DNA of 64,000 nucleotides, taken from Escherichia phage Ec_YwIITB1. Below, one piece after another: positions 1,821 to 61,322 of the stretch. A model generated the notes under the pieces. It was not told the DNA's origin and did not search any database. It was given only the letters and a program-made list of their open reading frames with translations. How positions within the stretch are numbered: position 1 is the first letter of the stretch; the number at the start of each line of letters is the position of its first letter. The position numbers and the translations under genes are program-made. The stretch lies in sequence record PQ356294.1; one strand, written 5' to 3'.

Positions 1821-1976
1821 CAACTATTTTTAGAACCAATGTACGCGAATAATGATAAAATCGCTAATACACCCTGAGCTGATGCTTGCAAAAATACTGA
1901 AGTTTCTCCGGTTATTACTGTTCCGATGCATAAAAAGAACCAACAGAAAAAGGCTATACCGTGAACAAATTTCATA
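1821..1976 (-). CDS. ac: small hydrophobic membrane protein (51 aa), ac-like
   Basis: ATG at 1976 preceded by GAGGAAAA SD; 51-codon hydrophobic ORF (MKFVHGIAFFCWFFLCIGTV...), not in the track because under 60 aa; position between 52 and stp as in T4. Confidence 0.45.
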
Positions 1977-1982
1977 TTTTCC

Positions 1983-2063
1983 TCACTGGCGTCCGAAGAC
2001 GCCTTTGGTTTTAAGATTGTTACGATAGAACTGCATCACATGTTCGTTATGGAAATTACTCAT
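1983..2063 (-). CDS. stp: Stp peptide (26 aa) coding segment, in frame with the C-terminus of the ndd ORF
   Basis: Last 26 codons encode [26 protein letters not shown], which matches T4 Stp as recalled; internal ATG at 2063. Confidence 0.6.
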
Positions 2064-2534
2064 ACACACCACACATTTTGCATAATATACCTGCAAAACA
2101 AATTTAAAGTTATCAGCCAACATACGGTTCATTTCTTCAAGTGTTTGATACTCAGAATGATGATTACGAGTAAACGCTAAAGCTAACTGACCTTTTCCAA
2201 ATCCAGTCGTTAGAGGTTTCATCTTAGAAGCAGGCAAATAAAACACTGCGTATGGAACATTATTATTTGCAATAGTGCGCGCGAGCTGAGACCGACGTTG
2301 ACGAATATGACTTAGAACTGCACTGAACCCTTGTTTAGAACGCTGATTACCTACATAAAATCGTGCAGATACGCATGAACCATATGAACCATCGAATTCG
2401 CTTACTAAAAAGTAAAATCCAGGGTTAGATAAAATATCTTTGTGCGGAGTTCCCAAAAACCATTCACCGCCCTTGATTGTACCAATAACAGTTGCGCCTG
2501 CATTATTCAAATCAGTAACAGTCATATATTTCAT
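1983..2534 (-). CDS. ndd: Ndd-like nucleoid disruption protein ORF (183 aa as read, continuous with stp)
   Basis: ORF starting [26 protein letters not shown] in the ndd position between stp and denB; SD upstream. Confidence 0.6.
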
Positions 2535-10451: not shown

Positions 10452-10819
10452 TTAAATTTAATGGCTTGAAGGAGACTAATAATTCTCAAGCGACTTCTTT
10501 CATCTTTAACTGTAAAAGAAAGAGGGTCGCCAGATTTCATAGTGATGGTACATCCAAAATCAAAATCTTCAGGAACTTCTTCGAAGAAGTCAAATTCTTC
10601 ATCATAAATTAAAACATTACTCTGAAAACTGTGAAGAATTTTTCCGTCATTTCCAGATGCTGTACTAATCATTGTAACATTATGGCCTTTCATATCTTCA
10701 ACGATAAATTCGCTTGTAGATATTACGGCATTAATAGAACCATTCCTATAAATAGCAGAAAATAGATATTTCTTTTCTTCACCTTCGCGAATGCGATATT
10801 TCTTACCGATTTTAAACAT
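10448..10819 (-). CDS. hypothetical protein (39.2-like)
   Basis: ORF with ATG at 10819 (track start 10825 appears to be GTG). Confidence 0.55.
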   Translation of the reverse strand: MFKIGKKYRIREGEEKKYLFSAIYRNGSINAVISTSEFIVEDMKGHNVTMISTASGNDGKILHSFQSNVLIYDEEFDFFEEVPEDFDFGCTITMKSGDPLSFTVKDERSRLRIISLLQAIKFK

Positions 10820-16735: not shown

Positions 16736-17482
16736 TTATCCTCGGATAAGTTTAAAAATTGAACAATTTAGCGGGTATCCTCTTTTCAGTTTAAGTTTAT
16801 CAATAAAAGACAAGTTTTGATACCGCTCTACACCTTGAATAATTTTATCACACATATCATATTGCATTTCTGCTTCTGACAACTTTTTCACAGTTTTCCA
16901 ATCCGAGCCTTTAAGAAGAACGTTCAATTTAACAACTTCAGCTCCTTCTGCTATACGAGAACCATCAATACGAGCTTTGAGTGCTACAATCGTTAGCTTA
17001 ATATCAGAGGTCTGTTTTGATTTAGAAAGCTGAGAAATGTGCTCAATTCGGTTTTCACGTTTTTTCTGTATAGCTTTAATTTGATTATAAGTCTTTTTGA
17101 TTTTAGCCCATTTCTTTTCATCTAAATTTAGTTTATGAACTTTTTTCGCAGATGAACGACCAATTCGCAAAGCAAATAAATCACGCTTTTCAATCAACTC
17201 TTCTAAAGTATAATCAGAACGAAATGTATTGTACTTTTTCTTTACTGCAATAACATTCCCTTTAATGTATCCAACGTTATTATCAAAACGTTCTAATGAT
17301 AATTTCTCTCCTTCAATACGATTATCAAAAGGTTCTCCCGAGTAAGCGCAAACTTTCTGATCTAAAATGTTCTTAATGTAATTGAAGTCTAAGTTAAAAT
17401 CTTTAGAACGTCTTTTAGCAGATGCCTGAGTGTGCTCTAGACGACGTGTAATTTTACGAATTTGATTTTTAGACAGTTTCAT
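16736..17482 (-). CDS. srd: Srd-like protein
   Basis: 248-aa basic ORF between dda and modA, as in T4. Confidence 0.7.
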   Translation of the reverse strand: MKLSKNQIRKITRRLEHTQASAKRRSKDFNLDFNYIKNILDQKVCAYSGEPFDNRIEGEKLSLERFDNNVGYIKGNVIAVKKKYNTFRSDYTLEELIEKRDLFALRIGRSSAKKVHKLNLDEKKWAKIKKTYNQIKAIQKKRENRIEHISQLSKSKQTSDIKLTIVALKARIDGSRIAEGAEVVKLNVLLKGSDWKTVKKLSEAEMQYDMCDKIIQGVERYQNLSFIDKLKLKRGYPLNCSIFKLIRG

Positions 17483-17511
17483 ATTTTTCTCACGGACGGG
17501 TTAACTACTTA

Positions 17512-17542
17512 TACTATAACATTTTTACTTCAGTTTGTAAAC
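17512..17542 (-). promoter_or_regulatory. early promoter upstream of srd
   Basis: Minus-strand GTTTAC with A/T-rich upstream element (aaagttgtttac). Confidence 0.5.
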
Positions 17543-17598
17543 AACTTTATGAAAAATGCTTTAAAACTTTCGTGGTATAATGAATCTAAGTCCTTCCA

Positions 17599-18201
17599 TT
17601 ATAGATTAAATCCTTCAAAATCAAGAGTATAGATAGTGTATGTTGAATACTTTTTATACTCGTATCTATCCGCAATTCTAAATACACTTCCAGCTGGTAT
17701 CATTACTTCTTGTTCATCTGAAACTAATTCCATATTACGATAACGATGGCTATCCGGAAATTTAAAACTCGGGCTATATTCTTTACAACGTAAAGCTTTT
17801 ATAGCATACTCCTGGAAATTAAACACCATAGGAGCTTTGAATTCAAAAATAACTTGTGTATTGTATTCTAATCCAGAAGCAAAATGTAGAGCTATATTTT
17901 TATCATATGAAGCTGATACTACTTTATCAAATGTAATAATATCAATTCCTTGATTTAACACCTGCTTAGTCTCAACTGGAACACCTCTCCAAAGAGGTTT
18001 ATCGTTTGGTTCCAAACGAGATTTGATTATTTCATTTAACCAAGAATGATCGTCTGGCTTATTAGTAATACAATGAATTAAAAGTTCAATTTCAGATAAA
18101 TTAAATCCTTCGGAAAGTAATTCTTCACGAATAGAAGCACGCACGGATGCATCCATTGATTTTATTTTAAAATCTTTTAATTGCATTGCTGAATATTTCA
18201 T
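17599..18201 (-). CDS. modA: ADP-ribosyltransferase ModA
   Basis: 200-aa ORF, adjacent paralog of the next gene; T4 order srd-modA-modB. Confidence 0.8.
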   Translation of the reverse strand: MKYSAMQLKDFKIKSMDASVRASIREELLSEGFNLSEIELLIHCITNKPDDHSWLNEIIKSRLEPNDKPLWRGVPVETKQVLNQGIDIITFDKVVSASYDKNIALHFASGLEYNTQVIFEFKAPMVFNFQEYAIKALRCKEYSPSFKFPDSHRYRNMELVSDEQEVMIPAGSVFRIADRYEYKKYSTYTIYTLDFEGFNL

Positions 18202-21016: not shown

Positions 21017-21027
21017 TTGAATTATTA

Positions 21028-21264
21028 ACCACCTATTTCTGTAGGCGTAAACATTGCAGCATTCTTAGTTTTCCAATCAGCTGCATCAGAAACTACGGTA
21101 GAATATGCTGCCTTTTCAGAAGGAAAGATTTGATAATGAGAATCTGCGATACGATGCTCGTTAGAATAAATTTCAAACGGAACAGAAACTTCCATACCTT
21201 TAACTTCTTTGCCTTCACCTGCTGGATGAGTAAAGGTCTTGATGTTAACGAAACCACCATAATA
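21028..21264 (-). pseudogene. soc: soc (small outer capsid protein) with start codon out of frame
   Basis: Frame encodes Soc-like ...GGFVNIKTF...HYQIFPSEKAAYSTV...AAMFTPTEIGG but lacks an in-frame start; the SD-proximal ATG at 21260 is offset by one base after a G-run. Confidence 0.6.
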
Positions 21265-21302
21265 AACTCCTTTATTGTTTAATTACAGGTGTATTTATAT
21301 CA

Positions 21303-21821
21303 TCAATAACCTCGGTCTTGACGAGCGAAGTTTTCAGCATTTTTCAAATAATAAAGTTTAAAGATTTCTTCAGCCGTAAGACCGAGACCTTGGAACATGT
21401 TTAGAACGAAATGAAGAATATCAATCATTTCGAATTTAATTTCCAACTGGTCTTGTGGAGACAAATCAGTAATTAAAGTTTCACGTCGTTCACCATGCTG
21501 AGCTTTCCAAGGTTTCCATACAGCAGATGCATCTTTTTCACCATTGCTCATACCACCAAGAGAAGTCAATAGTTCGCGGAATTCATCATCAATATAATCT
21601 TTTTGATTACGCAGCCAATCAACAACTTCGCCTGCGGTAGCCAAATCATCAGGATGACGGTTATATTCAGGTTTATCTTTAGCTAAACGAACCTGCAAAG
21701 ATTTCTGCATATCAAGCATAACCTGCAGCGGGTCTTTTTCATCACCGAGAATATCCCAGTATTCATTTTGAGCTTTATCAGCGCCTTCGATCAGTTGTGA
21801 ACATTCATTAAAGTAAGCCAT
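21303..21821 (-). CDS. 56: dCTPase/dCTP pyrophosphatase (gp56)
   Basis: 172-aa ORF from ATG at 21821 (MAYFNECSQLIEG...), AAAGGAAA SD; matches T4 gp56 as recalled; track start 21914 is a GTG extension. Confidence 0.88.
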   Translation of the reverse strand: MAYFNECSQLIEGADKAQNEYWDILGDEKDPLQVMLDMQKSLQVRLAKDKPEYNRHPDDLATAGEVVDWLRNQKDYIDDEFRELLTSLGGMSNGEKDASAVWKPWKAQHGERRETLITDLSPQDQLEIKFEMIDILHFVLNMFQGLGLTAEEIFKLYYLKNAENFARQDRGY

Positions 21822-21892
21822 TATTTTTCCTTTCAATTCATGGGTTAGTAGATTAATTATACAATAAATATATAAAGCAATAAGGAGGATAT

Positions 21893-22093
21893 ATGGCACA
21901 AAAATTAATGGCACTTGTTAATGCCATAAAAGGTAATAAAAAACGTATAGCTTTTACTATTTCTGCTATGGTAGGAATTTTACTCTGGAACTTTATTTTA
22001 TCGCCAATTGCAATTGCGCATGGCGTTAATATTCCAGTAGTTACTCTTGATACATTCGTAGATCTAGCATTTGCTTTAGTTGGGTTAATTTAA
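21893..22093 (+). CDS. small hydrophobic protein (66 aa) on the opposite strand
   Basis: Plus-strand ORF with strong AAGGAGG SD 6 nt upstream of ATG; predicted transmembrane segments. Confidence 0.45.
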   Translation: MAQKLMALVNAIKGNKKRIAFTISAMVGILLWNFILSPIAIAHGVNIPVVTLDTFVDLAFALVGLI

Positions 22094-23118
22094 ATCTTGG
22101 AATATTTAGATAACCGCATTTTAGCCATCAACCCCTGGGCAATATTATTTTTCATATATTCCATAATTTGTTCAGGGGTTGCACCTTCCTTTCTAATCAT
22201 ATCATTGACATCTTTTGATTTCCAGGGAGATTTATCCCAAAACATAACCCTTTCTCCTGCATCAACTAATTTAGTCATTCGTTTAATAGTGTCAGGATGA
22301 CGAGGTTCATTATCTAAAACCCACACACGTCTATCTTTAAATGGAACAATTTCTAGGTCTAATTGACCACCCGTAATAGCTATACCATTTTCAATAAAAA
22401 GTGAATCTATAGGTCCTTCTAGAACATATACATCACCATCTTTGACTCGTTCGACTCCATATATTTTTGTTGCCTCAGGATAAGCTTTGATAGTGATATA
22501 TTTTTGAGGAGCATCTTTCTTTAATGCACGTCCTTGAAAGGACTCAGCTTTTCCGTTAGCATTATAAATTGGAATAACAAGACGAGGCTCGGGCGTTTCC
22601 TTTTTATATGTTCCTGGAGCTATACTATTAACTAATTTAGGCCATTCGGTTGTAAACCAAAGATATTTCCATTTATCCTTTGGAATACAACGAGCTTTTA
22701 CATATTTTATAATTGGATGGTCTTCCGCCAGTTTATCTAATCTAACACATGACGGAAGAGCTTTAATTATTTTCTTCTCAGGATGTTTAGGAAGTTCTTT
22801 AGGTTTTTCTACTGGACGACTTTTACCTTTTTCTTTTCTTATTTCAAAGATATACTCACGATATAAATCAGGTTCAAACTCCTTTAAATATATTCCAATT
22901 GGCGCATGATAGCTGCAGTTATAACAATGAATATTTCCTTCATTATTATCACCATAATACCATCCACGCGCTTTATTTTGGTCGGTTTTTGAATCTCCAC
23001 AAACTGGGCATCTAAACCGTAATTTAAAAGTTGAACTATTATTTACTTGTGTGAATTTAGGTAAATGAGCTAATGCACGATATGCAAACTCATTATCAAT
23101 CCAAGCTATTGATGACAT
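22090..23118 (-). CDS. 61: DNA primase (gp61)
   Basis: 342-aa ORF with zinc-ribbon (CPVCGD...CYNC) and TOPRIM-like region; T4 gp61 length. Confidence 0.9.
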   Translation of the reverse strand: MSSIAWIDNEFAYRALAHLPKFTQVNNSSTFKLRFRCPVCGDSKTDQNKARGWYYGDNNEGNIHCYNCSYHAPIGIYLKEFEPDLYREYIFEIRKEKGKSRPVEKPKELPKHPEKKIIKALPSCVRLDKLAEDHPIIKYVKARCIPKDKWKYLWFTTEWPKLVNSIAPGTYKKETPEPRLVIPIYNANGKAESFQGRALKKDAPQKYITIKAYPEATKIYGVERVKDGDVYVLEGPIDSLFIENGIAITGGQLDLEIVPFKDRRVWVLDNEPRHPDTIKRMTKLVDAGERVMFWDKSPWKSKDVNDMIRKEGATPEQIMEYMKNNIAQGLMAKMRLSKYSKI

Positions 23119-27537: not shown

Positions 27538-28386
27538 TTAATCAACTGCTATTGGATGAATAGCATTAAACTTATGAAACGCTTCTGATTTTTCTTTGCG
27601 CGAAACACACATGCGAAGAACCTTTAATGGCTCGTCTTCTTCACCTAATGATTTTCGTTTTTCAATATTAGAAGTTTTCCAACGAGCTTGCTCTGGAAAC
27701 TCTCTATTGATTTGCTCAAGCGCTCTATTATGTTTAGAATTACTACGAATTGAGCTACATCCGCCAGGAGCTTGCGCTTTTCCAGATACAACCAGATATT
27801 TGAACAAGGCCAAATGCGGATAACCTTGATTAATTAAATTGAGAAATGCATACATATCTTCGCATAAATCAATTTTTCCATACCCAATTTGTTCTGTTGT
27901 AAGTTTCCCGAGGTCATACCAAGTATTCGTGAATCCATATGAATTTTCACGATAATTACCCCAAGATGAAGTAATTTTAAAAATTGGTAAACGAGCATGA
28001 CCATGATAATACCCGCAATCCATTGCATCTTCAACGTATTGAATCAATTCATAGAACTGTTCACGAGTTAATTGATTAATTTTATCTACGCAGCGACGAT
28101 CATCTTTCTTTCGCATTGAACTCATACGAATAGTAGTATCATCATCAATCATCCAAATTCGTTGACCTGCATACATATCAGTAATCGCTTTACGAGTACC
28201 AGCAATTCCATTAACATCATCAGGAATAGTTATAATTTTAGCTCTAGACCCGTAAGCGTCATAATAAGCTTTTTCTTCATGTTCACGTACTACAATATGT
28301 GGTTCATAATCAGTCGGAAACATATCAAGGGCAGAAACTGCCCCTACACGTTGATAGCTTGGAATTACGAATTGAATCATTTCCAC
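27538..28386 (-). CDS. putative DNA glycosyltransferase (GT-A-like, DDD motif) in the beta-gt locus
   Basis: 282-aa ORF between uvsX and gene 42 with IWMIDDDTTI (DxD-type) motif; not the 351-aa T4 beta-gt as recalled. Confidence 0.6.
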   Translation of the reverse strand: MEMIQFVIPSYQRVGAVSALDMFPTDYEPHIVVREHEEKAYYDAYGSRAKIITIPDDVNGIAGTRKAITDMYAGQRIWMIDDDTTIRMSSMRKKDDRRCVDKINQLTREQFYELIQYVEDAMDCGYYHGHARLPIFKITSSWGNYRENSYGFTNTWYDLGKLTTEQIGYGKIDLCEDMYAFLNLINQGYPHLALFKYLVVSGKAQAPGGCSSIRSNSKHNRALEQINREFPEQARWKTSNIEKRKSLGEEDEPLKVLRMCVSRKEKSEAFHKFNAIHPIAVD

Positions 28387-47503: not shown

Positions 47504-47738
47504 AATAAACCCTTACCTTAAATAGATAAGGGTATTTATTATTTTCAAGTATTGTAAAACATTTGATGCAATCGCTTATATTGCCGAATCGTTTGGTCAG
47601 AAAAAGAATCTTTTTAGTAGGACGAGAATAAGTTCCTACACAAGTGGTCATATTAGAGTCGGTAGGACTTCCTTTAATAAAAAGTTTCCAAACCTTACCA
47701 CCATTTAACTTTTCAGTATAAATTAATTCGGTTTTCAT
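47478..47738 (-). CDS. hypothetical protein (86 aa, 49.1-like)
   Basis: Minus-strand ORF overlapping the gene 49 start. Confidence 0.45.
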   Translation of the reverse strand: MKTELIYTEKLNGGKVWKLFIKGSPTDSNMTTCVGTYSRPTKKILFLTKRFGNISDCIKCFTILENNKYPYLFKVRVYYVIDWQII

Positions 47739-61067: not shown

Positions 61068-61280
61068 TCATTTTTGTCCTGTATTTACTTTATGCCGATG
61101 CACGGCCTTAACTTTATCAAGGTATTTTTCAAAATTTCGCAATCTAGTATAGTCTGCCGGAGATTGGTTGAGTGATACTTCTCGACGCAAAGCTGAAATG
61201 ATATTTCCAACTTCCCTACGAATTTCATCTAATTGAAGAACAGTAAGATTGCGAAGTTGCTTTTCAGTTAATTGTAGCAT
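61068..61280 (-). CDS. rI.1: rI.1-like protein
   Basis: 70-aa ORF between tk and rI. Confidence 0.55.
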
Positions 61281-61322
61281 ATATACCCCTTTAGTTAGAT
61301 AAACCTATTTATAACTTTTGCA

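Follow-up and report, generated by a model that had tools for sequence, protein, structure and literature searches.

The interval between gene 56 and the primase gene 61 of this T4-like phage contains a copy of dam.1, a protein-coding gene under purifying selection. Our explanation, which on balance we hold to be probable, is that this dam.1 family copy is transcribed late from a promoter box, AATAAATA, and that its product sits in the inner membrane and acts there by helix-helix contacts. The gene is already known as a catalogued hypothetical protein, and in that respect the finding is largely ordinary.

Layout of the junction

The window, by which we mean the whole 64-kb stretch of DNA analysed here, is Tequatrovirus (T4-like) sequence; its nearest records are those of Shigella phages sb1–sb4 and pSs-1, at ~97% identity over 24 kb. 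Features of the junction are listed in Table 1. The initial annotation of this DNA had estimated the distance between genes 56 and 61 at about 270 bp, and it measures 268 bp (21822..22089). The 66-codon opposite-strand ORF that it placed behind an AAGGAGG was likewise found, with the residues as quoted. The stop codons of dam.1 (22091–22093) and gene 61 (22090–22092) overlap in the tetranucleotide TTAA, and the same 4-bp overlap of the two stops occurs in T4, T6, RB51, RB69, JK42, phiC120, CkP1 and KLB31. The compact order 56/dam.1/61 is shared with T6, RB51, pSs-1, Mosigvirus RB69, JK42 and phiC120, and is the majority state in Tequatrovirus.

Table 1. Genes and signals at the gene 56/gene 61 junction, in window coordinates
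Feature	Position	Strand	Remarks
Gene 56 (dCTPase/dUTPase)	21303..21821	-	Left flank; Pfam dUTPase_2; homologue of T4 gp56
MotA-type middle promoter of gene 56 (predicted)	21856..21879	-	MotA box TGCTTTA 21879..21873; extended -10 TGTATAAT 21863..21856
Putative gp55-type late promoter box AATAAATA, A(-13) variant	21863..21870	+	Predicted start near 21876; cross-genus conservation
Shine-Dalgarno (SD) AAGGAGG	21882..21888	+	4 nt 5' of the dam.1 ATG; read off the sequence
dam.1-family gene, 66-aa small membrane protein (predicted)	21893..22093	+	ORF, phrog_2024 match, dN/dS
Terminator-like 8-bp hairpin and T-run	21908..21927	-	Gene 61 transcript; inside dam.1 codons 6-12
Gene 61 (DNA primase)	22090..23118	-	Convergent with dam.1

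dam as an optional insert

T4 had initially been described as holding the dam methyltransferase gene and the oriA region between genes 56 and 61, and the T4 record agrees: dam lies at 16846..17625, and oriA is at the 5' end of gene 56. Between T4 dam and gene 61 a gap of 309 bp is left, and in that gap (17738..17938, plus strand) is a dam.1 ORF, 95% identical to that of the window and unannotated in NC_000866 and AF158101. The small ORF had been tied to the compact junction; since T4 carries it beside dam, the presence of the ORF and the absence of dam are independent. T2-type genomes have a further insertion of ~540 bp; in the IMG/VR locus L004 it takes the form of an ORF of 186 aa separating dam from dam.1. 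Comparison with T4 and T2 sustains the difference in dam, which both have at the junction and which the window lacks upstream of dam.1 (as it lacks the 186-aa ORF of the T2 type), and not a difference in the small ORF, which T4 also has.

The initial observation that dam is missing from the junction extends to the rest of the DNA surveyed. No Dam homologue was found by tblastn in the window (best E=0.76), nor was there a homologue or an annotated methyltransferase at 62–165 kb of pSs-1, which served as proxy for the remainder of the genome. At ≥90% identity, 182 records have a T4-type Dam, and T4-type sequence directly upstream of dam.1 occurs in 177; the near agreement of these counts indicates that dam, when present, sits at the 56–61 junction. 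Relocation of dam to some other part of the genome was rejected on the strength of the two counts together with the searches of the window and pSs-1. It had been anticipated that T4-family references might show the same short junction with dam elsewhere; T6, RB51, pSs-1 and RB69 do share the short junction, but dam is missing altogether rather than moved. As an insert of 0.9 kb, dam is optional at this junction and is carried by about one third of Tequatrovirus records. T6 has classically been reported not to induce Dam methylase.

Other genes were noted at the same place. The L004 186-aa ORF (1841..2401, minus strand) has sub-threshold Pfam matches to the DpnII and BanI restriction endonucleases, and a motif of D...E-x-K type can be made out by eye; a GATC restriction enzyme paired with dam may survive here, as a remnant or in variant form. 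In Klebsiella phage PKO111 (Jiaodavirus; L015 1..1909), a 495-aa hypothetical gene and a DNA methyltransferase gene lie upstream of dam.1, so that a methyltransferase recurs near the 56–61 junction in a distant genus.

The lack of dam had been thought to bear on the modification state of the DNA. This is so for adenine methylation at GATC, which the T4 record attributes to Dam, but cytosine modification is another matter: the window keeps genes of the hmC pathway, namely the dCTPase, a thymidylate-synthase-family protein (dCMP-hydroxymethylase-type, in the gene 42 position) and a glycosyltransferase, so that loss of dam touches only GATC adenine methylation. With dam an accessory insert and the cytosine-modification genes in place, its absence matters little. 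Mutants of T4 in dam are viable. A 282-aa protein encoded at 27538..28386 (minus strand), presumably the position where T4 has its beta-glucosyltransferase, judging by gene order, matches Pfam TAGT (TET-associated glycosyltransferase; E=1.2e-9) and not the T4 beta-gt-type family; given this match, the sugar modification of hmC may differ from that of T4.

Conservation of dam.1

Selection on dam.1 is evident at the codon level. Within genera its dN/dS is 0.08–0.20, most differences being synonymous. Between Tequatrovirus, Mosigvirus and Gaprivervirus the synonymous sites are saturated (pS 0.64–0.78), while the frame, the 65/66-codon length and the motifs are kept. There are 15 invariant columns in a 16-sequence alignment of closer relatives, and almost no indels among the closer genera. 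The initial view of the small ORF as a genuine membrane-protein gene is supported.

The ORF was found by tblastn in 692 phage records, ~500 of them Tequatrovirus at ≥89% identity, and hundreds of phage genomes list it as a hypothetical protein. Annotated proteins in three phage records are 100% identical to that of the window; identity to annotated members of the family is 92–100% in Tequatrovirus and 52–56% in Mosigvirus. The family matches phrog_2024 (E=1.6e-31 over residues 3–66), which PHROG labels 'unknown function'. Among its names are 'dam.1 hypothetical protein' in T4T and, in RB51, RB32ORF030w, 'similar to RB69ORF029w'; several newer T4 records have it as hypothetical protein. T4T dam.1, RB32ORF030w and RB69ORF029w are the same gene as that of the window, alike in length, position, orientation and the 4-bp stop overlap.

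More distant members were sought by several routes. An IMG/VR scan with the single dam.1 protein gave 5 close loci, and an exhaustive profile search of 1.84 billion representative proteins gave only nine proteins, of 41–72 residues, at E≤0.001. The remote ones among them retain a basic cluster and a hydrophobic helix bearing W-[ND]-[FY] and P, after which come G...P-P and an acidic residue. Remote members used as tblastn queries picked out further homologues in Karamvirus CkP1, Jiaodavirus PKO111 and Kanagawavirus KLB31; all three have the ORF on the plus strand, converging on the primase gene. A homologue is also found in an unannotated Gaprivervirus record. We can describe the family as proteins of 60–69 residues with a basic N-terminus and one hydrophobic helix bearing W-[ND]-[FY] and P, followed by G...P and an acidic residue, and the window copy has all of these. 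At least seven Tevenvirinae genera have a recognisable homologue placed in this way, converging on primase; the position is shared by T4, T6, RB51, RB69, JK42, phiC120, CkP1, PKO111 and KLB31. The recurrence of plus-strand, primase-convergent homologues across genera marks dam.1 as a position-locked gene family of the T-even-type subfamily. Outside Tevenvirinae, in Krischvirus RB49 (L021 3009..3024), genes 56 and 61 are 14 bp apart with neither dam.1 nor dam; dam.1 is thus specific to Tevenvirinae and not to all T4-like phages. An antisense small gene in this region had been called unusual, a view that its recurrence at the same place in so many genera does not support; T4 late transcripts, moreover, occur in either polarity (PMC2988020).

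A start-codon change was noted in T6 (L002 2995-2997), where ATT replaces the dam.1 ATG behind an intact SD and annotators began the protein at Met6. This suggests reduced or alternative initiation of dam.1 in T6, as far as the sequence can be read.

A candidate late promoter

The putative late box AATAAATA lies 22 nt before the dam.1 ATG. It matches the late consensus TATAAATA, found at -13 to -6 of T4 late promoters (PMC2988020), at 7/8 positions. The A at -13 is the commonest T4 variant, replacing T at 9/50 listed T4 sites (PMC2988020), and relatives often have A or T there (PMC1524935). The box is followed by AT-rich tataaagc, in keeping with the definition of late promoters, which have a TATAAATA-type box about one helical turn from the start site, AT-rich sequence next to it and no -35 element (PMC2988020, PMC1524935).

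The core of the box is conserved where its surroundings are not. ATAAATA lies 15–22 nt upstream of the ATG in 8/9 sequences examined, flanks being otherwise unalignable between lineages; the ninth sequence, Karamvirus CkP1, has TTAAATA in its place. The full box is AATAAATA in the window type, Mosigvirus and Jiaodavirus, GATAAATA in the T4 type and the T2-type locus L004, and CATAAATA in Gaprivervirus and Kanagawavirus. At the -13 position there is G in T4 and C in two genera, both rarer deviations from the consensus. A strong SD precedes the dam.1 start in all lineages examined.

ATAAATA is eight-fold depleted in the window, with 5 sites on both strands taken together against 40.7 ± 6.9 in shuffles. 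They lie at 10748-10754(+), 21292-21298(-), 21864-21870(+), 47533-47539(-) and 61306-61312(-), and four of the five are just upstream of an SD and ATG, those of soc, dam.1, gene 49 and a 70-aa ORF (61068..61280, minus strand). The soc box (21292-21299, minus strand) is TATAAATA; that of gene 49, which encodes endonuclease VII (47533-47540, minus strand), is AATAAATA, the same variant as at dam.1. Like dam.1, soc and gene 49 have a late TATA-type box 20–35 nt before the SD and ATG in a region purged of the motif. They are on the early-gene strand, whereas dam.1 is on the other strand, running towards gene 61; for dam.1 we infer lateness from sequence.

Two further observations concern these boxes. 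The remaining copy, at 10747-10754(+), is an orphan: no ORF follows it, and an antisense late transcript may start from it. The soc gene of the window (21025..21299, minus strand) has an apparent frameshift, reading ATGGTGG where pSs-1 and RB69 have ATGGGTGG. The lesion is a 1-nt deletion in the G-run at codon 2, and the Soc frame resumes only at MEVSVPF... (21025..21195), the late promoter TATAAATA and SD remaining intact; it reflects either a pseudogene or a homopolymer sequencing error.

Early and middle transcripts of T4 are all of the polarity opposite to dam.1 (PMC2988020), and a sigma-70 promoter scan gave no convincing plus-strand early-type promoter upstream of the gene. From the box and its conservation, dam.1 is probably expressed late. 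A late promoter had been proposed initially, and a late-type box does give the best reading of the region; the element then named, TATATAAA (21869-21876), overlaps the one adopted here, but it is AATAAATA that is conserved across genera. A published 2006 HMM scan of RB69 late promoters called no site upstream of RB69ORF029w. Literature searches (RB69ORF029w, dam.1, T4 ribosome profiling, T4 transcription-start mapping) returned nothing on dam.1, and neither transcripts nor ribosome profiles nor proteomic data came to light for any family member.

Minus-strand signals and possible convergent transcription

Gene 56 upstream regions of the window, T6, RB51, T4 and Mosigvirus were compared and read against the mot-box/-10 annotation of T4. 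In the window, the extended -10 element TGTATAAT follows 11 bp downstream of a MotA box, and the gene 56 ATG lies ~35 bp beyond it. The MotA/-10 element is the same in T6 and RB51, and T4 has TTGCTTA-13-TATAAT just downstream of dam. By this comparison the window promoter appears to be the counterpart of T4 P(M)16.53, whose transcript the T4 record ties to oriA, as primer.

The compact junction of dam-less genomes places the plus-strand late box inside the spacer of this divergent middle promoter. Such an arrangement invites the thought that transcription of dam.1 matters more than its protein, with antisense RNA or promoter occlusion silencing genes 61 and 41 and, in dam-less genomes, late transcription also shutting down the adjacent MotA/oriA promoter of gene 56. 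We regard this as a secondary possibility and an improbable one, for the gene 56 promoter as for 61 and 41. It would fit the convergence of dam.1 on gene 61 with the 4-bp stop overlap, kept in most lineages, the lack of any plus-strand terminator within 600 bp past the dam.1 stop in the window, and the precedent of T4, which transcribes both strands at different times at several sites (PMC2988020). Yet the late box of T4 is ~900 bp from its gene 56 promoter, so that the overlap is not a conserved functional feature. Read-through would be blocked in PKO111 by a G+C-rich hairpin between dam.1 and the primase gene, and in Gaprivervirus by strong hairpins past the stop. An antisense role has no need of purifying selection on amino acids, nor of the kept SD and start codon.

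Two other structures were noted at the convergent ends. The minus-strand hairpin within dam.1 coincides with a terminator annotated by TransTermHP in phage SA21RB; it is present in T4 and absent in other genera, and being confined to Tequatrovirus it was rejected as the cause of the conservation of the ORF. On the plus strand, a long stem is predicted 40–90 nt past the dam.1 stop, formed by AACCCCTGGGCAAT ... GTTCAGGGGTT (22130-22143 / 22168-22181), and it recurs with some base changes in T4, Mosigvirus and Kanagawavirus. This could be a 3'-end structure of the dam.1 late RNA or of the gene 61 mRNA, a reading confounded by the coding constraint on gene 61.

A predicted inner-membrane protein

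The best 19-residue hydrophobic window of the dam.1 product is at residues 23–41, with 5 Lys/Arg on its N side and none on its C side. The skew holds across lineages: the N-terminal 18–22 residues carry 4–6 Lys/Arg, and 0–1 follow the hydrophobic core, which predicts a cytoplasmic N-terminus. Nolan et al. 2006 predicted one transmembrane segment (residues 21–41) and no signal peptide for RB69ORF029w. An AlphaFold2 model built on the family alignment has helices at residues 2–14, 16–42 and 52–63, with mean pLDDT 76.7. The C-terminal 25 residues are hydrophobic and include one or two conserved acidic residues; they carry 0 Lys/Arg and 2 Asp in the window protein and 0–1 Lys/Arg in other lineages. 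This stretch may rest at the periplasmic face, or it may be a second, short membrane segment, and with that possible second helix the predicted topology is provisional. On these models, dam.1 probably encodes a small inner-membrane protein with its N-terminus inside.

Residues W32, P38 and G44 are invariant family-wide, N33 and P48 nearly so, all in or just after the membrane helix. Judged from the alignment, this W/P/G pattern suggests specific intramembrane packing or partner binding and not a generic anchor. Searches with Pfam, NCBIfam and PDB sequence profiles and against BFVD folds returned nothing beyond family members. Two stray single-entry database labels, 'Holin' and 'putative head morphogenesis protein', come without stated basis.

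A small, hydrophobic, probably late protein could be a holin, pinholin or other membrane-permeabilising toxin that directly lyses or kills the host, and a toxin- or holin-like peptide had been suggested initially. The predicted transmembrane domain agrees with the expectation of at least one in a small holin, the 'Holin' label is on a UniProt entry 92% identical to the window protein, and Met1 and Met6 of the Tequatrovirus proteins, split by a Lys, resemble a dual-start motif. That second Met, however, is missing in Mosigvirus and other genera. The hydrophobic C-terminus, with its 0–1 basic residues, differs from the charged tail typical of holins, and no Pfam or NCBIfam holin family is matched even at E≤10. 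There are no lysis genes near dam.1, and in pSs-1 a normal T-type holin, spanins and a lysis-inhibition accessory protein are encoded elsewhere. Direct lysis or killing by dam.1 seems to us quite unlikely, and the initial suggestion finds no charged C-terminal tail, holin-family match or lysis neighbours to stand on.

It is harder still to believe that dam.1 goes unexpressed and is conserved through DNA or RNA signals (terminator, processing site, origin region) of the 61-to-56 unit, for although the ORF contains a terminator-like hairpin in Tequatrovirus and went uncalled in the curated T4 reference genome, that hairpin is not seen beyond the genus, within-genus differences are mostly synonymous at dN/dS of 0.08–0.2, and protein motifs, length, SD and ATG are kept between genera whose nucleotides are saturated.

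Proposed role

Under the explanation that we favour, a late-transcribed dam.1 with a membrane product, RNA polymerase with gp55, gp33 and gp45 would use AATAAATA late, giving a leader of ~17 nt with a strong SD. The product would span the inner membrane by a single helix (about residues 19–42), leaving its basic N-terminus cytoplasmic and the hydrophobic, acid-containing C-terminal segment on or in the periplasmic face, and would contact another membrane protein through helix-helix packing. The contact is proposed because the invariant W32, P38 and G44 fall where they do relative to the helix. As to its role, we lean weakly, and as a guess, towards an accessory protein that modulates late events at the envelope, such as the timing or inhibition of lysis or exclusion, and not towards a holin.

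Several known proteins offer comparison. T4 T and RI, lambda S and phage 21 S68 are small inner-membrane proteins of lytic phages, as dam.1 probably is, and probably late like them; unlike holins and antiholins, dam.1 has no sequence or profile similarity to them, no charged C-terminal domain and no lysis cassette, and its dual start is not conserved. T4 Imm and Sp are small envelope accessory proteins of superinfection exclusion, which dam.1 resembles by analogy alone. Imm and Sp are early genes; in the T4 record, sp is ~1.5 kb from dam.1, in the same block and on the early strand.

Implications for T-even-type phages

The T4 reference records NC_000866 and AF158101 omit a gene that T-even-type phages keep under purifying selection, and studies using that annotation would not include dam.1. 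Most of the gene can be mutated without touching other coding sequence, since only its last codon and stop abut gene 61.

A broader reading, which we put forward tentatively and think rather unlikely, is that dam.1 is an overlooked Tevenvirinae-wide late inner-membrane protein with a specific role in a classic T-even phenotype (lysis timing, lysis-inhibition signalling or late superinfection exclusion), or in the anchoring of an assembly or replication complex to the membrane. If that were true, its origin-proximal late promoter, which in dam-less phages is interdigitated with the gene 56/oriA middle promoter, would place dam.1 among the first late genes to fire. With or without such a role, dam.1 adds one more uncharacterised small membrane protein to the best-studied lytic phage, and with it a testable prediction of late expression.
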